In this document: positions 4,198-57,412 of the stretch, in pieces
How the letters are laid out: every line of letters starts with the position of its first letter
How positions within the stretch are numbered: position 1 is the stretch's first letter
Assembly: GCA_003660975.1 (NCBI GenBank)
Contig: QMVG01000004.1
Span: 12,595 to 76,594, forward strand
Direction: 5' to 3'
DNA: 64,000 bases
DNA from: Candidatus Micrarchaeota archaeon
Lineage (GTDB): Archaea > B1Sed10-29 > B47-G15
Made by a program: the position numbers and the translations under genes
Notes under the pieces: model-generated
What the model was told of the DNA's origin: nothing
The model's input: the letters and a program-made list of their open reading frames with translations, nothing else
Database searches by the model: none

Positions 4198-5088
4198 TTA
4201 AAGCATTCTCATGGCGTTTTTCATGGACAGTATTGGGATTTTATACGACATAATATACTGCTCATAGTATGCATTTCTTGGCAAGACAACGACGCGAAAA
4301 TCTTTGCTAAGCCCTTCTCTTATTAGGTGGTTTCCAGATGTGAACTCATAACTGAATATGCCGCTCCCTTCGCTGACTGTTATGATATAAAAAAAGCAGG
4401 CGTCAGGCGAAATCACTGCTATGTGGCTGCCAATGGGCATTTCTTTTAATTTTGACAGCTTTTTGTGAATTTGCTCAGCAGCCTCTCTAATGCCAAGCGC
4501 TCTGATACTGTTAATCCTGGCTCTTTTTTTGGAATTTTTGGCCTTAATATAAATCCTATTGTCAATCACATCAAAGTATTTTGCAGAAAAGCCAGCCTTA
4601 TTTACAACCTCTTCTATGTTTAAGATGTCTCCTTTTTTCTCGTCAATGAACGGCACTGCAAAATCCATTGAGAAACTAATTAAAATCTCTTTTATCTGCT
4701 TTAAATTTTTCATTTGAATTAGGTGCTTCTTCCACGATGACAAGCTGTCCTGCAATATCACGGCCTTACTATATTTTATTTCCCTGTCCTCTTCACTTAT
4801 GGTTTCACTTATGAAACAGTGGGCTGTTCCTTCCCGTATCGTATGAAACAGATAAGCCAGCTCCTCCTTTGCGTATTCAAGAGCGCTGTAAAAGGTCTGT
4901 ATGTCATCATAGGGGGATACAATGGCTTTAACAGCTACTGGCAGGCCTTCCTCTCTTGCAGCGCCGGATATGTACAAAGCCAGAGGCAAAACATTATTTC
5001 CTATAACAAGTACAGCCTCCATTGGCTTTAGGTCAAGCAGCCTATAACTGTCCTCAAATACTGTCATATCTTTGTTTAAGTAGCTCAA
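4198..5088 (-). CDS. hypothetical protein
   Basis: Long uninterrupted ORF (296 aa) in a gene-dense context. No motif I recognise. Confidence 0.5.
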   Translation of the reverse strand: MSYLNKDMTVFEDSYRLLDLKPMEAVLVIGNNVLPLALYISGAAREEGLPVAVKAIVSPYDDIQTFYSALEYAKEELAYLFHTIREGTAHCFISETISEEDREIKYSKAVILQDSLSSWKKHLIQMKNLKQIKEILISFSMDFAVPFIDEKKGDILNIEEVVNKAGFSAKYFDVIDNRIYIKAKNSKKRARINSIRALGIREAAEQIHKKLSKLKEMPIGSHIAVISPDACFFYIITVSEGSGIFSYEFTSGNHLIREGLSKDFRVVVLPRNAYYEQYIMSYKIPILSMKNAMRML

Positions 5089-40494: not shown

Positions 40495-40627
40495 CGCTTA
40501 ATCTTCCACATCTATCCCAGAAAAAGGCTTTTTCCTTTTTGCTTAGCTTTTTCCACAGCTTTCCCAGAAAAAGGCATATTTTTATTTTCGCTTAAGCCTT
40601 TTCCACATCTATCCCAGAAAAAGGCTT
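40495..40627. repeat. three tandem copies of the tRNA-associated hairpin repeat, cluster B
   Basis: Units are CGCTTAATCTTCCACATCTATCCCAGAAAAAGGCTT (40495..40530), GCTTAGCTTTTTCCACAGCTTTCCCAGAAAAAGGC (about 40541..40575) and CGCTTAAGCCTTTTCCACATCTATCCCAGAAAAAGGCTT (40589..40627). The arms AAGCCTTTT/AAAAGGCTT are inverted repeats. The orientation is reverse-complement relative to cluster A units. Confidence 0.55.
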
Positions 40628-43867: not shown

Positions 43868-44165
43868 CTAGGGACCGAAGGTCCCTATTGGGGGCTTCAG
43901 TTTCGCTTAAGCCTTTAACATCGGAATAACAGGAAAGGCTTAAATCCCTCCCCCTGCACTAAGCTTTTTCCTATGAAAACTGTGGAAAAAGCTTAAGCAA
44001 AAAAGAGGGGGAGGGAAGTTTTGATGAAACTTTTGCTAAAAGTTTCAATCCCTCCCCCTGCATTGCAACGCAGCTCGTTGCATCCGCAGGCGATCTTCGA
44101 TCGCCTTTGCTTAAGCCTTTGACACAGAAAGGATAGGAAAGGCTTAAATCCCTGTGCTGTTAAAA
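43868..44165. repeat. structured intergenic region: duplicated tRNA-Leu 3' ends plus hairpin repeats (cluster C)
   Basis: AATCCCTCCCCCTGCACTA (native, 43852..43870) recurs at 43943..43961 (19/19 nt). A 16-nt copy is at 44047..44062 and a 7-nt remnant at 44147..44153. An inverted copy, GAGGGGGAGGGA, lies near 44005..44016. Three units of the hairpin family AAGCYTTT-loop-AAARGCTT are present, along with extra hairpins (AGGGACC-GAA-GGTCCCT, TGCAACG-CAGCT-CGTTGCA, GGCGATC-TTC-GATCGCC). Confidence 0.6.
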
Positions 44166-44186
44166 TACCAGTGAAGAGGTCAAGGC

Positions 44187-44447
44187 ATGAGGATTGAGAA
44201 GAAAATATGGCCGGAGTATTTTCAGAAAATAATTGATGGAGTCAAAACCTTTGAGTTAAGGCTGGCAGATTTTGAGTGCAGGCCTGGTGACATACTGGTT
44301 TTGAGGGAATGGGACCCAAGAACAAAAGAGTACACGGGCAGAGTTATTGAAAAGAAGGTCACTTACGTGGCCAAAAGCAAAGACATGAGGTCCTGGCCTG
44401 ACGAGGACATAAGGAAATATGGGTTTCTGGTTATTGGGTTTAAATGA
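44187..44447 (+). CDS. ASCH/PUA-like small protein (DUF3850-like)
   Basis: KIWPEYFQKIIDGVKTFELRLADFECRPGDILVLREWDP matches my recollection of the DUF3850/ASCH pattern. 86 aa. Confidence 0.55.
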   Translation: MRIEKKIWPEYFQKIIDGVKTFELRLADFECRPGDILVLREWDPRTKEYTGRVIEKKVTYVAKSKDMRSWPDEDIRKYGFLVIGFK

Positions 44448-44510
44448 GCGGCGGTTGATATGTTTTCAATGGTGGCCATATGATTAGATAATCGACAAAC
44501 ATGCGAATCC

Positions 44511-44519
44511 TTTTTATAT
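44511..44519 (+). promoter_or_regulatory. TATA-box-like element upstream of the effector gene
   Basis: TTTTTATAT is centred about 26 nt upstream of ATG 44541, the spacing expected for an archaeal promoter driving a leaderless mRNA. Confidence 0.3.
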
Positions 44520-44540
44520 GTGAAAACAAGAAATAAAACG

Positions 44541-46301
44541 ATGCCATCCGAAACATACATTACGAAAACCTTGTCATTAAAACTCATTCCATCAGATGAA
44601 GAAAAGCAGGCGTTAGAAAACTATTTTATAACATTCCAGAGGGCCGTGAATTTTGCTATAGATAGAATAGTAGATATAAGAAGCTCCTTTAGATATCTAA
44701 ACAAAAATGAACAATTTCCAGCCGTGTGTGATTGCTGTGGTAAGAAAGAAAAGATAATGTATGTGAATATATCCAATAAAACCTTTAAGTTTAAACCATC
44801 AAGAAATCAGAAGGATAGATACACGAAGGACATTTATACAATCAAGCCCAATGCCCACATATGTAAGACATGCTACAGTGGCGTTGCAGGAAATATGTTT
44901 ATACGCAAACAAATGTATCCGAACGATAAAGAAGGGTGGAAAGTTTCGCGTTCATACAATATCAAAGTTAATGCCCCTGGACTGACTGGAACCGAATATG
45001 CTATGGCCATACGGAAGGCAATAAGTATATTAAGATCTTTTGAAAAGCGACGAAGAAATGCTGAAAGAAGAATCATAGAGTATGAAAAGTCCAAAAAAGA
45101 GTATTTAGAATTGATTGATGATGTTGAAAAAGGAAAGACAAATAAAATAGTGGTTCTTGAGAAAGAAGGCCATCAGCGAGTGAAAAGATATAAACACAAG
45201 AATTGGCCTGAGAAATGGCAAGGTATTTCTTTAAATAAAGCAAAAAGTAAGGTTAAAGATATTGAGAAAAGAATAAAAAAGCTCAAGGAGTGGAAACACC
45301 CTACACTAAATCGACCATATGTCGAGTTACACAAAAATAATGTTAGGATAGTGGGTTATGAAACAGTGGAACTTAAATTAGGAAACAAAATGTACACCAT
45401 ACATTTTGCTAGCATATCTAATTTACGAAAACCATTTAGAAAACAAAAGAAAAAGTCCATAGAATATCTGAAACATCTCCTAACCCTAGCGTTAAAAAGA
45501 AATCTTGAAACATACCCCAGCATAATAAAAAGAGGTAAGAATTTCTTTTTGCAGTATCCTGTGCGAGTGACAGTTAAAGTGCCTAAGCTGACAAAAAATT
45601 TTAAAGCTTTTGGCATCGATAGAGGCGTAAATAGGCTTGCAGTAGGTTGTATAATCTCAAAAGATGGAAAACTTACCAATAAAAATATTTTTTTCTTCCA
45701 TGGAAAGGAAGCGTGGGCCAAGGAAAACAGATACAAGAAGATTAGGGACAGATTATACGCTATGGCCAAGAAGTTGAGAGGAGATAAAACCAAGAAAATA
45801 AGGCTTTATCATGAGATTAGGAAGAAATTTAGACATAAAGTCAAATATTTCAGGAGAAACTATCTGCATAATATCTCTAAGCAAATTGTTGAGATTGCAA
45901 AGGAAAATACACCGACTGTCATCGTATTAGAAGATTTACGGTACTTGAGAGAAAGGACATATAGAGGAAAAGGAAGAAGCAAAAAGGCGAAAAAAACAAA
46001 TTATAAATTAAATACTTTTACTTACAGAATGCTTATAGATATGATAAAATACAAGGCAGAAGAAGCGGGAGTTCCTGTAATGATTATTGACCCAAGAAAC
46101 ACATCACGAAAATGTTCTAAGTGTGGTTATGTTGACGAAAATAATAGAAAACAAGCCTCGTTTAAGTGCCTTAAGTGTGGTTATAGTCTTAATGCAGACT
46201 TAAATGCAGCTGTCAATATAGCAAAAGCTTTTTATGAATGCCCCACGTTTAGATGGGAAGAAAAATTGCATGCATATGTTTGTTCAGAGCCCGATAAATA
46301 G
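44541..46301 (+). CDS. cas12f: miniature type V CRISPR effector candidate (TnpB-like RuvC nuclease; Cas12f/Cas14-like)
   Basis: 586 aa from ATG 44541 (593 aa from GTG 44520). Split RuvC: FGIDRGVN (Asp codon 45618..45620), TVIVLEDL (Glu codon 45930..45932) and NADLNAAVNIA (Asp codon 46197..46199). A CSKCGY...CLKCGY zinc ribbon sits between RuvC-II and RuvC-III. The N-terminal half has a second Cys cluster (CDCCGKK...CKTC) and a Lys-rich helical region. There is no HNH domain. The gene lies 342 bp upstream of a CRISPR array with cas1-cas2-cas4 beyond. Confidence 0.85.
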   Translation: MPSETYITKTLSLKLIPSDEEKQALENYFITFQRAVNFAIDRIVDIRSSFRYLNKNEQFPAVCDCCGKKEKIMYVNISNKTFKFKPSRNQKDRYTKDIYTIKPNAHICKTCYSGVAGNMFIRKQMYPNDKEGWKVSRSYNIKVNAPGLTGTEYAMAIRKAISILRSFEKRRRNAERRIIEYEKSKKEYLELIDDVEKGKTNKIVVLEKEGHQRVKRYKHKNWPEKWQGISLNKAKSKVKDIEKRIKKLKEWKHPTLNRPYVELHKNNVRIVGYETVELKLGNKMYTIHFASISNLRKPFRKQKKKSIEYLKHLLTLALKRNLETYPSIIKRGKNFFLQYPVRVTVKVPKLTKNFKAFGIDRGVNRLAVGCIISKDGKLTNKNIFFFHGKEAWAKENRYKKIRDRLYAMAKKLRGDKTKKIRLYHEIRKKFRHKVKYFRRNYLHNISKQIVEIAKENTPTVIVLEDLRYLRERTYRGKGRSKKAKKTNYKLNTFTYRMLIDMIKYKAEEAGVPVMIIDPRNTSRKCSKCGYVDENNRKQASFKCLKCGYSLNADLNAAVNIAKAFYECPTFRWEEKLHAYVCSEPDK

Positions 46302-46343
46302 CAAATTTACTTATTCGGAGCCTGTTTAAGCCATTAGAAAAAG

Positions 46344-46353
46344 ATAAATATTA
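46344..46353 (+). promoter_or_regulatory. TATA-box-like element upstream of the candidate tracrRNA
   Basis: ATAAATATTA, preceded by an A-rich BRE-like AAAAAG, lies about 25-30 nt before the start of the structured region. Confidence 0.3.
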
Positions 46354-46379
46354 AGAAGCACATAATTTATTTTGGTTAC

Positions 46380-46556
46380 ATATCACTGGATAATGAGAAC
46401 AGCTGTAGATTAAGCTGTTTGATGTATTGTATTATGCTCCACTTTAATAAGTGGTGCCTTCCAAAGCTATATGCTGAGGGAGGATGGGCGCTGTTGCAGC
46501 GTCTGCCCACCTCAGAGTGGGTATCCTTACCTATTTTGAAAGGTTCTGTAAGTGTT
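46380..46556 (+). ncRNA. candidate tracrRNA
   Basis: Anti-repeat ATCCTTACCTATTTTGAAAGGTTCTGTAA (46523..46551) pairs with repeat positions 18-32 (13 bp with two 1-nt bulges) and 2-11 (10 bp including one G-U). Upstream hairpins are CCACTT-TAAT-AAGTGG (46439..46454) and CTGAGG..TGGGC-GCTG-TTG-CAGC-GTCT-GCCCA-CCTCAG (46474..46515). The ends are approximate, and the strand is inferred from array polarity. Confidence 0.6.
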
Positions 46557-46643
46557 TATAAATCCGATTGCAATTTTGCAACTTACCTATTTTTAAGTTT
46601 CAGATATCTCGATAGACGCAGCAATACTCAAAAATTGTCTGCC

Positions 46644-47742
46644 ATTGCAGAACCCAAAGTAATAGGTCAAGGAATGCAACTGACTAAACAAAGTTTCGCT
46701 AAACTAGAAGAACAGGCCAATTGCAGAACCCAAAGTAATAGGTCAAGGAATGCAACTCAATATCAGACGCTTTATTCACTCTAGGAGCTACCCTTATTGC
46801 AGAACCCAAAGTAATAGGTCAAGGAATGCAACATTATATTTATTGTTATGTTATCATATCTCCCAAACAAAAGTATTGCAGAACCCAAAGTAATAGGTCA
46901 AGGAATGCAACTAGGTGTTGTTAAGCGACACGGTTAGAAGGTAATCTTGATTATTGCAGAACCCAAAGTAATAGGTCAAGGAATGCAACTCGGCCTTTTT
47001 CCAGCCAAGGGCTTTTACTATTGCCCTATTGCAGAACCCAAAGTAATAGGTCAAGGAATGCAACCAAGCGAAAAGTATTTATATAACATAGGTTTGTTTC
47101 ATTGCAGAACCCAAAGTAATAGGTCAAGGAATGCAACTATTCTTCCAAATTCAACACCTCCAAAATATTTATAATTGCAGAACCCAAAGTAATAGGTCAA
47201 GGAATGCAACTTGACAGCCAAGCTAGAAAGTTGTTAAACAGCTTTAATTGCAGAACCCAAAGTAATAGGTCAAGGAATGCAACTATGTTAAAATCGCTAT
47301 CGGGCGTGGAAGGGGGTAGCGAATTGCAGAACCCAAAGTAATAGGTCAAGGAATGCAACCATAGTATCCCTGCGTTTGCTCTGCAACCGCAGGTTGTCTA
47401 TTGCAGAACCCAAAGTAATAGGTCAAGGAATGCAACTCTGGATATCTGGTCCCTCCACGAAACCATCACCATCATTGCAGAACCCAAAGTAATAGGTCAA
47501 GGAATGCAACCACCTTTTGGTATAGCCCAGAAGCATCAAAAACATGTGAAAAATTGCAGAACCCAAAGTAATAGGTCAAGGAATGCAACTCTTTTTAGCT
47601 TTTCTCGGCAGTTTATACCACATATCCTTATTGCAGAACCCAAAGTAATAGGTCAAGGAATGCAACGGTAATGTCAGCCCATCTGACGCAACGGCATTTG
47701 AGACAATTGCAGAACCCAAAGTAATAGGTCAAGGAATGCATG
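46644..47742 (+). CRISPR. CRISPR array: 15 x 37-bp repeats, 14 spacers
   Basis: The repeat is ATTGCAGAACCCAAAGTAATAGGTCAAGGAATGCAAC. Copies start at 46644, 46720, 46796, 46875, 46953, 47028, 47101, 47174, 47247, 47323, 47400, 47474, 47553, 47630 and 47706. The first 14 are identical by eye; the last diverges in its final 2 nt (..GCATG). Spacer lengths are 39,39,42,41,38,36,36,36,39,40,37,42,40,39 and all spacers are different. Confidence 0.97.
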
Positions 47743-47784
47743 AGAACCACATAATTTTTAAATTGCAGGTACTTATCATTTTTT

Positions 47785-48774
47785 ATGATTTTAGTGATAA
47801 ACGATTTTTCAACATTCCTGGGGAAGAAAGGGGACCGTTTTGTAATTAAAAAGGAAAATAAGCGTGAAGAATTTTCTACAAATAACGTTGAACAAATCAT
47901 AATTGCTGCAGTCTCATCTATCTCCTATGGAGCTATTCGATTGGCAATTAAACACTCTATTGATGTGGTTTTTTTAAGCAGAGGAGGTACTCCTTTAGGC
48001 AGGATATACCCCTGTAAACTCGGTGGAACAACCTTAACGAGAAAAAAACAATTAGAGGCTTATTATTCAACAGTTGGTACAAACATCGTAAAAAATCTCG
48101 TTAAAGCAAAGATTATGAACCAAGCCTATTTTTTGAAGTCTTTAGAAAAAACAAGAAAAGATATTAATTTCACTTCTGAAATTAACAGCATTGTTAATAT
48201 TGCTAAAAAGATTCCAGGTCTCACAGGTCTAATAGATGATATACGGGGAACTTTATTGGGATATGAAGGCATTGCAGCCAACAAATATTTTAGTTCCTTG
48301 TCTAACATACTACCATTTAAAGGAAGGGACAGAACAAGTAATGATTACGTAAATATTGTATTGAATTATGGATATGGTGTTCTGTACACGGAAGCAGAGA
48401 AAGCGTGTATTCTAGCAGGTCTTGATCCATATTTCGGTTTTTTGCACAAAGATAGGTACAACAAACCTTCAATGGTATTGGACCTTGTGGAAATATTTAG
48501 ACCAATCATAGTGGACAGGGCAGTTGTTACTTTGTTTTCCCAAAAACAGATAAATTCGAAGTGTTTTGAGAAAGAAACATATGGGGATGTTTTTTTAAGT
48601 AAAGAGGGTAGGGAAAAAATCTTATCTGCTCTTCTATCTCGCCTCAATCAGCAGATACGCTTTAAAGGTAAGAAAACAAGCTTTAAAAACATCATATTAG
48701 GAGAAAGCCGTTCTATAGCTCAATATGTTCTTGGTAATATACCAGAATATGAGCCGTTTGTTTATAGGTGGTAA
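47785..48774 (+). CDS. cas1: CRISPR-associated integrase Cas1
   Basis: NIVLNYGYGVLYTEAEKACILAGLDPYFGFLHKDRYNKPSMVLDLVEIFRPIIVDR is the Cas1 C-terminal catalytic domain pattern (E...H...D/E). Starts 42 nt after the last repeat. Confidence 0.95.
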   Translation: MILVINDFSTFLGKKGDRFVIKKENKREEFSTNNVEQIIIAAVSSISYGAIRLAIKHSIDVVFLSRGGTPLGRIYPCKLGGTTLTRKKQLEAYYSTVGTNIVKNLVKAKIMNQAYFLKSLEKTRKDINFTSEINSIVNIAKKIPGLTGLIDDIRGTLLGYEGIAANKYFSSLSNILPFKGRDRTSNDYVNIVLNYGYGVLYTEAEKACILAGLDPYFGFLHKDRYNKPSMVLDLVEIFRPIIVDRAVVTLFSQKQINSKCFEKETYGDVFLSKEGREKILSALLSRLNQQIRFKGKKTSFKNIILGESRSIAQYVLGNIPEYEPFVYRW

Positions 48775-48776
48775 TT

Positions 48777-49061
48777 ATGATATATTGGGTGATTTATGAC
48801 ATCACAGACAATAAAGTTAGAAGCAAGGTTGCCGAGGAGTGCAAGAACTTGGGGTTACATCGAGTCCAAAAAAGTTCTTTTATTGGCATTCTCTCTAGAA
48901 ATACAGCCGAGATGTTATATATTAAAATAGGGGATTTAATTGATAAAAGAGATTGTGTGTTCTTTATTCCACAATGTAACAAATGTTTTGCAGACAAACT
49001 TATTCTTGGCGATTTTGATGAAAGGACTGTAGAAGCAAAAGATTTCATCGTGGTGCAATGA
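48777..49061 (+). CDS. cas2: CRISPR-associated protein Cas2
   Basis: MIYWVIYDITDNKVRSKVAEECKNLGLHRVQKSSF is the Cas2 N-terminal beta-strand with the conserved Asp (YDI). The ATG is 2 nt after the cas1 stop (the ORF-track GTG at 48768 overlaps cas1). Confidence 0.85.
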   Translation: MIYWVIYDITDNKVRSKVAEECKNLGLHRVQKSSFIGILSRNTAEMLYIKIGDLIDKRDCVFFIPQCNKCFADKLILGDFDERTVEAKDFIVVQ

Positions 49062-49651
49062 CAACGATGGATGGTTATTTAACTGCTAAGGATTTAATGA
49101 ACTTTCATTATTGTAAAAGATTAATATATTTTGAGAATGTATTGAAAATTAAACAAGCTACAACCACCAAAGAACTAAAAGGTCGCGCATTACACAACAG
49201 TTTTTCTGTATCATCAAAGAGAACCAAGATAATAAAGGAGTTTCCATATTGGCCTAAGATATATAATCTTAGATTAAAATCAGATTTTTTGCACCTTATA
49301 ACTACATTAGACTGCTTGATTATAAACCAAACAGATAATGAGGCATTTCCGCTGGAATACAAATATTCCAAAAAACCACGCAAGATTTATAAAACCATGA
49401 AATTGCAACTGTCTCTTCAAGCCCTTCTCGTAAATGAACTTTTACATTATAGTGTGAAGTTTGGTTTCATAAAGTTTTCCAAAGACAATTCTTTGGCCAA
49501 AGTAAGCATAACAGATAGAGATTTAGAAGAAGTGAGAACGACTATATCTGAGGTTAATACAATAGTAGAGAAGGAGATTTTACCTCCACCCACCGAATAT
49601 AAAAAAAGATGTATTGACTGTTGCTATTTCAATATATGCAAAGGAATCTAA
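49058..49651 (+). CDS. cas4: CRISPR-associated exonuclease Cas4
   Basis: N-terminal Cys (FHYCKRLIYF), RecB-type D...ExK (LDCLI...PLEYKYSK), a QxxxL/Y helix (KLQLSLQALLV) and a C-terminal Fe-S Cys cluster CIDCCYFNIC. ATGA overlap with the cas2 stop. Confidence 0.85.
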   Translation: MTTMDGYLTAKDLMNFHYCKRLIYFENVLKIKQATTTKELKGRALHNSFSVSSKRTKIIKEFPYWPKIYNLRLKSDFLHLITTLDCLIINQTDNEAFPLEYKYSKKPRKIYKTMKLQLSLQALLVNELLHYSVKFGFIKFSKDNSLAKVSITDRDLEEVRTTISEVNTIVEKEILPPPTEYKKRCIDCCYFNICKGI

Positions 49652-54876: not shown

Positions 54877-55681
54877 TGCCTAGCTTTTCTGCAAACGTTG
54901 GCTTTTTAACCTGATAGAAAATGCCCATGGCTATCTTTGATTTCGGGTCTAATGAATAATCCCACTCAGCAGCTATCTTATAAGCTTCCTCAAAGCTCTG
55001 CTTATTGTTTCCCTCTACCCAGTACAAGTGCTGCTTAATGAAATCTCTTGTGTCATGGAAGGTCAGGCAAGGCTGCATTACCTCTACGACAGAAGCGCCC
55101 TCGTGCTTTACTGCTTCTTTGAGTATCTCTTTTGTTTTCTGGATGTCAAGAGCATACGTCCTGGCCACGAAGGTAGCGCCTGATGACAATGCCAACGTCA
55201 GAGGGTTTATTGGATTCTCGTAGTTGCCTTGCGGCGTTGTTTTTCCCTTAAATCCTCTCTCTGTTGTGGGCGTTGCCTGGCCTGTTGTCAAAGCAAAGAC
55301 CTGGTTGTCGTGGATTACCATGGTCATGTCAGTGTTGTGCCTGCAAGCGTATATGTAGTGAGACACCCCTTCTGCCAAGGCGTCTCCGTCTCCAGCAAAG
55401 ACAATTGGCTTCAGCTTTGGGTTCGCTATTCTAAGGCCAACACCAATGGGAATTGCCCTGCCGTGCAGGGAGTAAAAGCCGTTAATGTTTAGGTAATCAA
55501 AGATTTTAGCATGACATCCTATGCCAGTGACCTGCACTATGTTCTTTCTCTCAACAGCCTTTTCATTCACAAGCTCTGCAATGGCCTGCTTGGTGGCTGT
55601 CAGGATAGCGAAATTTGTGCAACCAGGACACCAAGTTATTGGCTCTTTTGTTGAAAGCTCATTAACAGTAAGTTCAGGCAT
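54869..55681 (-). CDS. 2-oxoacid:ferredoxin oxidoreductase, beta (TPP-binding) subunit
   Basis: WCPGCTNF and GDGDALAEG TPP-binding motifs. 8-nt overlap with the alpha subunit gene. Confidence 0.9.
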   Translation of the reverse strand: MPELTVNELSTKEPITWCPGCTNFAILTATKQAIAELVNEKAVERKNIVQVTGIGCHAKIFDYLNINGFYSLHGRAIPIGVGLRIANPKLKPIVFAGDGDALAEGVSHYIYACRHNTDMTMVIHDNQVFALTTGQATPTTERGFKGKTTPQGNYENPINPLTLALSSGATFVARTYALDIQKTKEILKEAVKHEGASVVEVMQPCLTFHDTRDFIKQHLYWVEGNNKQSFEEAYKIAAEWDYSLDPKSKIAMGIFYQVKKPTFAEKLGIK

Positions 55682-57281
55682 GTTTTACTCCCTCCACAAT
55701 CTCCTTGGCAGAGAAAGGCCTTGCATCGTATTTCAAAACCTTCTTCTTTACGATTATCCCTGTTTTCTCAGCTATGATGTCTGCTAGCTGGCCTGTCACA
55801 TTGTTCTCTACATCTACAATCTCATCTGCCTTCTCCAATACTTCCTTAACCACCTTAGACGGGAACGGCGACAGGTATCTTATTTGAAGGTATGAGTATC
55901 CATCAAGTTCTCTCAAGGCATCTAATATTGCCCCTTTGGTAGAGCCCCATCCAACTATGACCTTACTCCCATTTCCATACATCTTTACAGGCTCTAATTG
56001 CATTACCTCTTTTTCCAAAGTCTTCATCTTCCTCATTCTCTTGTCGTTCATCTTGACAGTCATCTCTGGGTCTTCTGTAGTGTTCGAATACTCGTCGTGC
56101 TCATAGCTAGTTGCCTTAACCACCACATTGTCATCTTCACCTGGTATTGCTCTTGGGCTCAAGCCGTCTTCAGTAATTTTGTAGTGAGCGTAATTTTTAT
56201 CTGCCTTAATGATAAACTTTTCTGGTTTTCTCTTTGGCTTTACAAACTCTTCAATAGTGAACTGGCTTTCCGCAACGTGCTTGTCTGTTAGAATGATAGC
56301 CAATGTCCTGTATTTGTATGCCAAGTAAAACGCTTCCTGAGTCAATTCGTATATCTCATCAGGCAGGCCTGGAGCAACAACTATTCTCGGAAATTCTCCA
56401 TGCCCTATGTTCAGAGCCATCTTCAGGTCAGCCTGAGCTGTATACGTAGGCAGGCCAGTTGCAGGCCCTGTTCTCTGGGCCAGGTTTATCACCAGAGGAG
56501 TTTCAGATATGCCTGCCAAGGAACAAGCTTCTCCCATGAGCGCTAAACCACCGCTGCTCGTAGCTGCCATTGCCATCTTACCAGCGTATGAGGCAGCAAT
56601 AACCCCGTGCACTACTGCTATCTCATTTTCCATCTGCACTGCCTTCAGCTTTTCATTTTGATGAGCTGCTATGTAATGAAAAACAGGAGTCGCAGGCGTC
56701 ATTGGATATCCTATGAACCTCTCAAGGCCAGCATCTATGGCTGCCTTGCCAAGCGTTTGGCTTCCGCTTATTATGAAGGCATTAAGCTCTTTTCCATTGT
56801 CTATGCTAAACACGGTTTCAGCAGCATCATAGCCTCTTGAAGCTATCTCAAGCTGCTTCTCTCCAAGGCTCTCCTTTACTACAGACAGAATTACCTCTTT
56901 CTTCATTCCGATTGTCTTTGCAAGCACGCCCACAAAGAAGCTGTTTTTTGAGATAGGAGGTAAGTTGAGCTCTTTTATTGCCTCGTCTGCCTGGGGATAA
57001 TCCTTATACAAGATAACTATGCCACCACTTTTCAAATGGCTCTTGTGCTTTTCAGCTGTCTCATCGTTGAGGGCAAGTATAACATCATATTCCCACTCGT
57101 TTGAGAATACTTTTTCCTTTGAGAAGCTTATCACGTTGAAATTGTGCCCTCCTCTTATCAGGGATTGGTAATCCCTATAGTTGAAGGAGTAATAACCTAT
57201 TCTCCTCAAAGCTTCTGTTACTATTTCAGAAGCCTTTTCAACGCCTTGGCCTGCTTGGCCTCCAATCAGAATTGATTTCAT
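55674..57281 (-). CDS. 2-oxoacid:ferredoxin oxidoreductase, fused gamma-alpha subunit
   Basis: The N-terminal IGGQAGQGVEKASEI region is gamma-like, followed by the alpha-type GYPMTPATPVFHY and a transketolase-like domain. Confidence 0.85.
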   Translation of the reverse strand: MKSILIGGQAGQGVEKASEIVTEALRRIGYYSFNYRDYQSLIRGGHNFNVISFSKEKVFSNEWEYDVILALNDETAEKHKSHLKSGGIVILYKDYPQADEAIKELNLPPISKNSFFVGVLAKTIGMKKEVILSVVKESLGEKQLEIASRGYDAAETVFSIDNGKELNAFIISGSQTLGKAAIDAGLERFIGYPMTPATPVFHYIAAHQNEKLKAVQMENEIAVVHGVIAASYAGKMAMAATSSGGLALMGEACSLAGISETPLVINLAQRTGPATGLPTYTAQADLKMALNIGHGEFPRIVVAPGLPDEIYELTQEAFYLAYKYRTLAIILTDKHVAESQFTIEEFVKPKRKPEKFIIKADKNYAHYKITEDGLSPRAIPGEDDNVVVKATSYEHDEYSNTTEDPEMTVKMNDKRMRKMKTLEKEVMQLEPVKMYGNGSKVIVGWGSTKGAILDALRELDGYSYLQIRYLSPFPSKVVKEVLEKADEIVDVENNVTGQLADIIAEKTGIIVKKKVLKYDARPFSAKEIVEGVKHA

Positions 57282-57412
57282 ACATATCCTCATTTTAATA
57301 GAAGCAATTGAAGGTAATTTAAGTTTTTACACCTTAATAAATCTTTCAGAAGCATTTTTGCACCAAAATATTTATATGCTTCAAGTTCATATTCTACTAC
57401 GACGGTGATCTG

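Follow-up and report, generated by a model that had tools for sequence, protein, structure and literature searches.

The DNA described here is a stretch of 64,000 nucleotides (nt) from a Candidatus Micrarchaeota archaeon (contig QMVG01000004.1, positions 12,595 to 76,594 of the forward strand), which is called the window below and is numbered from its first letter. It carries a compact type V CRISPR (short palindromic repeats that are clustered and regularly interspaced) locus, and the gap of 342 nt separating the effector gene from the repeat array very probably encodes, on the + strand, the trans-activating CRISPR RNA (tracrRNA) of the type V-F2 Mi2Cas12f2 system. Three lines of evidence lead to this assignment: the anti-repeat follows the repeat of its own locus in 11 loci, a covariance model built from other loci (R1) matches the gap, and the region was used functionally by Karvelis et al. 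A preliminary description of this DNA had proposed a tracrRNA with a bipartite anti-repeat between the effector gene and the array, and the proposal is supported by covariation, by R1 and by the published use.

Mi2Cas12f2, formerly Cas14b17, is a protein of 586 amino acids (aa; RLG21245.1) from Candidatus Micrarchaeota archaeon, scaffold QMVG01000004.1, reported by Karvelis et al. (2020, Nucleic Acids Res 48:5016, PMC7229846), who labelled the DNA lying between nuclease gene and repeats a "putative tracrRNA". Expression of the effector gene together with this region and the array gave double-strand DNA cleavage in E. coli lysate that depended on a protospacer-adjacent motif (PAM); in a PAM library the lysates cleaved after position 21 of the protospacer, and the PAM is T-rich (PMC7229846). 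The tracrRNA finding is thus a rediscovery, since the locus and the "putative tracrRNA" region were published and used functionally in 2020. The same paper gives the Mi2Cas12f2 RNA without ends, anti-repeat, structure or single-guide design (PMC7229846). It is the only paper that names Mi2Cas12f2 in the literature searched, which did not extend to patents, and a detailed description of a Cas12f2 tracrRNA was not found in that literature.

The discovery value is small, as the system, the effector and the putative tracrRNA date from 2020 and Cas12f1 structures have already made RNAs of this type well understood. The additions made here are a model, resolved to the nucleotide and backed by covariation, of a previously unmapped RNA, with three pairing sites (among them a pseudoknot contact that had been missed), a conserved core and probable ends, and a comparative alignment for the Cas12f2 branch. 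Its practical use lies in reconstituting or shortening the guide RNA for Mi2Cas12f2.

Locus and effector

According to gene calls and Pfam matches, the locus runs on the + strand as an open reading frame (ORF), the effector gene, the 342-nt gap, the array and cas1-cas2-cas4. The effector gene (44541..46301, +) encodes a TnpB-like protein of 586 aa, which matches the Pfam models Cas12f1-like_TNB (PF07282) and OrfB_IS605 (PF01385) and whose catalytic RuvC residues D360, E464 and D553 are invariant in the family alignment. Its N-terminal peptide MPSETYITKTL matches the Mi2Cas12f2 entry in the supplement of PMC7229846, and 399/399 N-terminal residues are identical to the Mi2Cas12f2 sequence printed there, both proteins being 586 aa long. 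The array (46644..47742, +) has 15 copies of the 37-nt repeat ATTGCAGAACCCAAAGTAATAGGTCAAGGAATGCAAC and 14 spacers of 36-42 nt, and its terminal repeat at the 3' side is degenerate. This degenerate last repeat and the conserved guide-proximal repeat end indicate that the array is transcribed from the + strand. Judged by complementarity and strand, the putative tracrRNA gene adjoins both cas12f, which ends at 46301, and the array, which starts at 46644.

Complementarity of the gap to the repeat

The long anti-repeat ATCCTTACCTATTTTGAAAGGTTCTGTAA (46523-46551, +) is complementary to the repeat in two blocks, which flank an internal loop of 6 x 6 nt and together form a long, bulged repeat:anti-repeat duplex. 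Block 1, ATCCTTACCTATT (46523-46535, +), is the reverse complement of repeat nt 18-32 (ATTCCTTGACCTATT) less two bases, and pairs by 13 base pairs (bp) with two 1-nt bulges. Block 2, GGTTCTGTAA (46542-46551, +), differs from the reverse complement of repeat nt 2-11 by one C>T change, which turns one of its 10 bp into a G-U pair. Sequence, coordinates and both helix lengths agree with what had been claimed from inspection, and the in-silico co-folding that had been suggested as a check, done here with RNAcofold on tracrRNA and CRISPR RNA (crRNA), predicts the same two intermolecular helices. The earlier account of the pairing was right on the two blocks; it missed a third contact, the most conserved one, which is made by a GUUGCA loop further upstream. 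The three helices amount to 29 bp and cover 30/37 repeat bases.

When RNAduplex was slid along both strands in 41,872 windows, with the array excluded (128 kb of sequence searched), 46523-46551 came out as the best site for the repeat, with -30.2 kcal/mol against a mean of -11.8 and a standard deviation of 3.7. The energy profile along the gap has a single sharp minimum, with its peak only at 46507-46566, and the observed value was reached by 0/300 dinucleotide shuffles of the intergenic region (z = -4.2). A tracrRNA on the minus strand was rejected, as the best duplex with the repeat on that strand of the gap has only -17.1 kcal/mol.

Hairpin presenting the guide-proximal anti-repeat

The third contact is the short anti-repeat GUUGCA (46493..46498, +), which complements repeat nt 32-37 exactly (UGCAAC, the guide-adjacent end), so that at sequence level a short repeat:anti-repeat with the guide-proximal end of the repeat is also found. 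It is presented in the loop U-GUUGCA of a hairpin (46486..46504, +) with a core stem GCGC/GCGU of 4 bp, 46488-46491 with 46499-46502, which can be extended to 46486/46504. The pairing of GUUGCA with the repeat end is predicted to correspond to the pseudoknot, or short repeat:anti-repeat, of Cas12f1 guide RNAs.

A small hairpin with a 7-nt loop YGUUGCA stands in every locus compared (17 loci, described in the next section), of which L168, L163 and L167 have variant loops. The GUUGCA loop is invariant in 11 loci of known repeat end, and L168 shows a compensatory change: its loop at 2121 is GUCGCA and its repeats, from 2301 on, end in UGCGAC. All four pairs of the stem (4/4) show compensatory changes, with 100% of cells paired in the 16 loci aligned in one frame, and the variants include GCGC/GCGU, ACUG/CAGU, GCGU/ACGC, GCGG/CCGC, GCUU/AAGC, GCCC/GGGC and CCAC/GUGG. 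This covariation score was reached by 0/500 shuffles, and slid controls collapse.

The variant loops of L163 (GUCGCA, near 4751) and L167 (GUUUCA, near 4815) lie on contigs that end before their arrays. From these loops the repeats would be predicted to end in UGCGAC and UGAAAC, respectively.

Conservation among Cas12f2-type loci

A word-indexed protein search found almost zero relatives of the effector, and exhaustive HMMER searching found a small family at 30-39% identity. Loci with full-length relatives were collected from a scan of GTDB genomes and from exact look-ups of the exhaustive HMMER matches in public assemblies. The distinct loci are L001-L004, L006, L009, L161-L165, L167-L170 and L174, with L002 identical to L172; a further contig, L166, ends at the effector stop codon and has no downstream sequence. 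A metagenome scan with the family alignment, for which the peptide pattern was a generic TnpB motif, gave only C-terminal TnpB-like matches. The hosts of the related loci are DPANN-type archaea and several bacterial metagenome-assembled genomes (MAGs). Wherever the contig continues, the effector is followed 300-440 nt downstream by an array, which is also the arrangement in the window, and the repeats end in GGAAUGCAAC in almost all loci, as the Cas14a1 repeat does.

The anti-repeat tracks the repeat of its own locus. When repeat nt 1-31 of 11 loci were set against the intergenic gaps of the same 11 in a full matrix, cognate pairs had a mean of -26.6 kcal/mol against -16.9 +/- 3.9 for non-cognate pairs, and the long anti-repeat site always falls just upstream of the leader in the loci compared. 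In L162 the repeat starts with CUUGCACACGGC and the gap has the counterpart GCCGUGUGCAA, in L170 AGCUCCGCAA stands opposite UUGCAGAGCU, and in L164 the anti-repeat is almost continuous.

A second conserved element, stem 1, has a UAUAU loop and stands just 5' of the GUUGCA hairpin in most loci; in archaeal relatives it is preceded by a further hairpin, stem 0. Covariance model R1, which covers stem 1 and the hairpin, was given its structure by hand and was built from three near-identical bacterial sequences with the window excluded. Its best match in the 64-kb window is 46458-46502 (+), with 15.1 bits and E = 0.064. Over 89 sources, its ten best matches are all on the + strand and downstream of Cas12f2-type genes, and none of these ten falls within the ~75 TnpB-type control loci. 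An alignment of the same region with MAFFT and RNAalifold misaligned the 3' strand of stem 1 and recovered the hairpin alone. A covariance-model scan against Rfam over 44000-48000, with E values up to 10, returned noise only, so the candidate tracrRNA has no family match there.

It is tentatively suggested that the Cas12f2 (Cas14b) branch has a tracrRNA core of its own, made of the UAUAU stem 1 and the GUUGCA hairpin, which would be common to DPANN archaea and to MAGs of bacteria from the candidate phyla radiation and other groups, and of which no description was found in the literature searched. The Mi2 version would be naturally shortened, one small hairpin of 18 nt taking the place of the 60-125 nt of stems that stand between pseudoknot hairpin and anti-repeat in relatives. 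If this holds, the part from about 46439 to 46551 fused to the repeat would make a compact single guide for a branch of Cas12f that has not been engineered.

Several further features of the related loci were noted. The order in the window and in L170 is effector, tracrRNA, array and cas1-cas2-cas4, and in L161, L164 and L172 it is cas1-cas2-cas4, effector, tracrRNA and array; L166 begins in the same way. The same core and repeat end occur in the bacterial loci L001 (a Woykebacteria MAG), L002 = L172 (a 'Gammaproteobacteria' MAG), L164 and L169 as well as in MAGs of DPANN archaea. Their leader promoters differ with the host, TTGACA standing in bacteria and TTTATAAA in archaea. At about 5773-5796 of L003, and at equivalent places in L004, L009 and L174, the 3' half of the anti-repeat lies inside a perfect hairpin (GTTCTGATTC-AAAA-GAATCAGAAC in L003) just before the leader TATA box; this hairpin could act as a terminator, or the anti-repeat could mask itself in this way.

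Predicted fold and ends and proposed action of the RNA

The candidate tracrRNA has about 180 nt and is placed at 46375..46556 (+), with a 5' end estimated within 46374-46438 and a 3' end estimated at or after 46551. This 182-nt stretch folds at -64.9 kcal/mol (z = -4.66 against shuffles). A TATA-like box ATAAATATTA at 46344..46353 (+), which is present as first described, is preceded by the purine-rich AGAAAAAG, the whole element spanning 46337-46353, and is a candidate archaeal promoter for the tracrRNA; archaeal relatives have TTTAAATA or TTTAAAAA early in the equivalent intergenic region, and a sigma-70-type promoter was not found.

Hairpin A, GAACAGCT-GTAGATTA-AGCTGTTT (46397..46420, +), is a fold prediction with a T-rich tail in a terminator-like pattern, and is either the 5' hairpin of the tracrRNA or the terminator-like end of the cas12f2 mRNA. 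Stem 0, CCACTT-TAAT-AAGTGG (46439..46454, +), belongs to the minimum-energy fold and is the first of two strong hairpins noticed at the start; independent folds show a stem 0-like hairpin directly 5' of stem 1 in L170, L003, L004, L174 and L162. Stem 1, CCUUCC-AA-AGC-UAUAU-GCU-GA-GGGAGG (46457..46483, +), is present in the minimum-energy folds, is aligned by R1 from other loci, and recurs with a differing basal helix in L001, L002, L003, L004, L162, L164, L170 and L174. The loop-presenting hairpin follows. Between it and the anti-repeat, the minimum-energy fold of 46455-46522 has a linker hairpin, GCCCAC-CUCAGA-GUGGGU (46505..46522, +), whose pairing competes with that of anti-repeat block 1 in the full-length fold.

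The second of the two hairpins noticed at the start was a 42-nt stem-loop at 46474-46515. Its inverted repeat CTGAGG...CCTCAG exists; as a functional fold it is rejected. It shares 46474-46483 with the conserved stem 1 and excludes it, it costs 5.5 kcal/mol (-28.0 vs -33.5), it is unused by the minimum-energy fold and it is unsupported by the family, and it is probably a weaker alternative to stem 1.

In the proposed mechanism, transcription would begin about 25 nt past the TATA-like box, near 46375-46380, the RNA would form at most four hairpins on its way (A, then stem 0 and stem 1, then the one that presents the loop), and it would end in or just past the anti-repeat, which abuts the leader promoter of the array. 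The tracrRNA would pair with each repeat of the pre-crRNA at three places, the GUUGCA loop, block 1 and block 2. The loop would form a pseudoknot with the last six repeat bases beside the guide, and blocks 1 and 2 would form the long, bulged repeat:anti-repeat stem. The resulting dual RNA would be the scaffold bound by Mi2Cas12f2 to find and cut DNA beside a T-rich PAM. Archaea generally lack the RNase III that is used for processing in bacteria.

Alternative explanations

The main live alternative concerns the boundaries of the RNA, not the nature of the element. The same tracrRNA could start at about 46421-46438, past a hairpin A that ends the cas12f2 mRNA, or could be cut from a read-through transcript, coming from cas12f2 or running into the array, with no promoter or terminator of its own. 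These ends are rather unlikely, and several observations fit them. Hairpin A with its T-rich tail has the terminator-like pattern, the promoter of the tracrRNA was assigned by motif alone, and between the anti-repeat and the adjoining leader TATA box there is no room for a T-run, five consecutive T appearing first at 46591-46595. In bacterial relatives stem 1 comes within ~35-40 nt of the stop codon, from which it follows that the conserved core starts at stem 1. On the other hand, the purine-rich element and TATA-like box at 46337-46353 are good, and archaeal relatives have an early TATA box as well. The position of stem 0 (46439-46454) is conserved among archaeal relatives, so the start should be upstream of 46439, and L161 and L170 appear, by eye only, to have a hairpin before stem 0, at a place similar to that of hairpin A.

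A second explanation is that the gap acts only in cis, as the 3' untranslated region or terminator of cas12f2 and the leader and promoter of the array, with the complementarity being a decayed inverted copy of the repeat and the crRNA sufficing alone. It is very improbable. Repeat-derived debris does occur in the gap (a copy at 46582-46596 and a palindrome at 46568-46583), expression of the tracrRNA is a prediction, and some type V effectors, such as Cas12a, work without a tracrRNA (PMC11246509). However, debris would not track its own repeat in 11 loci, nor would it keep a compensated stem with a repeat-matched loop, including the double change in L168; the 46582-46596 copy is itself at background pairing energy (-13.7 kcal/mol), and the characterised Cas12f1 enzymes depend exclusively on a tracrRNA (PMC11246509).

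Chance complementarity in an AT-rich intergenic region has a negligible probability: a coding-region site at 56038-56085 does equal the anti-repeat by energy (-30.0 kcal/mol), but none of the 300 shuffles reached the observed value, the top site of the 128 kb searched falls in the 342-nt gap on the correct strand, and the repeat-gap matrix, R1 and the covariation contradict it.

Some points weigh against the assignment of the gap as the Mi2Cas12f2 tracrRNA gene. The site at 56038-56085 (+) pairs with the repeat at nearly the energy of the anti-repeat, and duplex energy alone does not part the two; energy by itself is therefore unconvincing, and what decides is where the site lies, together with the comparative data. 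This site lies antisense in a pyruvate:ferredoxin oxidoreductase gene (55674-57293, minus) and was rejected as a second anti-repeat and treated as chance. The hairpins used for covariation were chosen by a script seeking pairing around the hexamer, which inflates the percentage paired and leaves the compensatory changes unaffected. The helix of the pseudoknot itself, loop with repeat, varies in one locus only (L168). The R1 match in the window is marginal alone, with E = 0.064 in the window and 0.68 over all sources. The free RNA, in its minimum-energy fold, has GUUGCA partly buried, since the hairpin closes down until 3 nt are left in its loop, and has block 1 paired with 46514-46522, so binding would need refolding. 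The distance from loop to anti-repeat is ~30 nt in the window RNA and roughly 60-125 nt in relatives, and the nearest relative of the effector is 39% identical, too distant to test conservation of the 5' part of the RNA. Karvelis et al. saw no plasmid interference in E. coli for Cas14-family members and made no deletion of the putative tracrRNA region (PMC7229846). Expression of the tracrRNA and both its ends are inferred from sequence, and the same applies to its processing, to the pseudoknot in three dimensions and to the need for the tracrRNA.

Relation to known guide RNAs

The tracrRNA gene of Cas14a1 (Un1Cas12f1; structures 7C7L, 7L48 and 7L49) reportedly lies between the nuclease gene and the array, according to Harrington et al. 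in 2018, and the window has the same arrangement. The Un1Cas12f1 repeat also ends in GGAAUGCAAC, its single-guide RNA has a hairpin GGCUG-CUUGCAU-CAGCC facing the repeat end AUGCAAC (the loop complements AUGCAA), and its 3'-terminal anti-repeat likewise forms two blocks of pairs with the repeat, on either side of an internal loop. Repeat:anti-repeat 1 is the pseudoknot of the Un1Cas12f1 structure, and repeat:anti-repeat 2 is its stem 5 (PMC10097598). The two systems differ in other respects. The effectors are distant, with E = 6e-9 to 7L48 in the C-terminal half only, the register of the loop is one base off (UGCAAC in the window, AUGCAA in Un1), the window RNA has the UAUAU-loop stem 1 directly 5' of the loop hairpin, and one small hairpin stands before its anti-repeat, where Un1 has the long stem 4.

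The preliminary description also saw a loose likeness between the 5' part of the candidate and the start of the Cas14a1 tracrRNA. The likeness is real (TCACTG(G)ATAA..GAGAAC.GCT; TCACTGGATAA-TGAGAACAGCT vs TCACTGATAAAGTGGAGAACCGCT), but weak: it is matched by 59/1000 shuffles for the whole candidate (p ~0.06) and by 12/2000 for the 5' parts alone (0.006). Overall sequence similarity of the window RNA to the Cas14a1 tracrRNA is not significant, and a Cas14a1-like 5' end was not noticed in the Cas12f2 relatives, for which no formal search was made. The loop-presenting hairpin is the clearest likeness seen to the Cas14a1 RNA.

AsCas12f1, SpCas12f1 and CnCas12f1 (type V-F1, formerly V-U3; 8J12, 8J3R) are the best matches of the effector among solved structures, with E ~1e-19 in the RuvC/TNB part, and stem 1, pseudoknot and stem 2 form the conserved core of Cas12f1 RNAs. 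These systems differ from the window in having bacterial hosts, other repeats and tracrRNAs, and loci without adjacent cas1-cas2-cas4; the ends of their RNAs are experimentally mapped, whereas those of the window RNA are predicted.

In the omegaRNA (reRNA) of TnpB, a pseudoknot near the guide is succeeded by a stem, and the two are described as the structural equivalents of pseudoknot and stem 5 in the Cas12f guide (PMC10097598); the OrfB_IS605 and TNB domains of the window effector recall TnpB. In contrast to omegaRNA, which is a single RNA overlapping the 3' end of tnpB with a fixed guide from the transposon flank, the window RNA would be a separate RNA that pairs in trans with the repeats of an adaptive array beside cas1, cas2 and cas4. 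An omegaRNA is ruled out by a conserved core that lies >130 nt past the stop codon and by guides that come from an array of 15 repeats. The scoutRNA of Cas12c and Cas12d, as reportedly described by Harrington et al. in 2020, is a short non-coding RNA with a few nt of repeat complementarity; it is ruled out here by 29 bp over 30/37 repeat bases and by the Cas12f2 effector.

Leader, neighbouring genes and other elements

Directly after the anti-repeat stands the box TTTATAAA (46556..46563, +), a candidate promoter of the CRISPR leader. L003, L162 and L165 have the same box ~80-90 nt ahead of their first repeat, a near-identical one is found in each of L004, L009, L161 and L170, and bacterial relatives have TTGACA instead.

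At 46582-46596, CTTACCTATTTTTAA is a 14/15 direct copy of anti-repeat block 1 (compared with 46526-46540), 56 nt downstream, and it falls at the predicted start of the pre-crRNA leader. It was rejected as a second anti-repeat, since 29% of windows equal its pairing energy. ACTTACYT is found at the equivalent place in L161, L162 and L165, and CTTACCTATTTTTAA may be a motif of the leader or of the start site. The palindrome ATTGCAATTTTGCAAC (46568-46583), which follows the leader TATA box and precedes the predicted start of the leader, resembles both ends of the repeat (ATTGCA...TGCAAC) fused, and archaeal relatives have TGCAAA(A) at the equivalent position. A called ORF at 46419-46784 has a TTG start and crosses the leader and two repeats; it had been taken as spurious, and the same conclusion is reached here by inference only.

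Downstream of the array are cas1 (47785-48774, +; Pfam Cas_Cas1), cas2 (48768-49061, +; CRISPR_Cas2) and cas4 (49058-49651, +; Cas_Cas4). The first 20 nt of spacers 1, 4 and 14 gave zero exact matches to protospacers in IMG/VR.

The gene immediately preceding that of the effector, in the same orientation, encodes an 86-aa ASCH/DUF3850 protein (44187-44447, +); it was not seen beside the effector in the relatives examined and is probably unrelated to the CRISPR locus. Upstream of this ORF (44006-44061 and 44108-44160) there is a long GC-rich inverted repeat, AGAGGGGGAGGGAAGTTT...TCCCTCCCCCT, whose only Rfam matches are spurious microRNA-like ones. The motif GCTTAAGCCTT is found near this inverted repeat and again in a 50-nt tandem repeat at 40504-40627, and the inverted repeat and the GCTTAAGCCTT copies may be small mobile or terminator elements.

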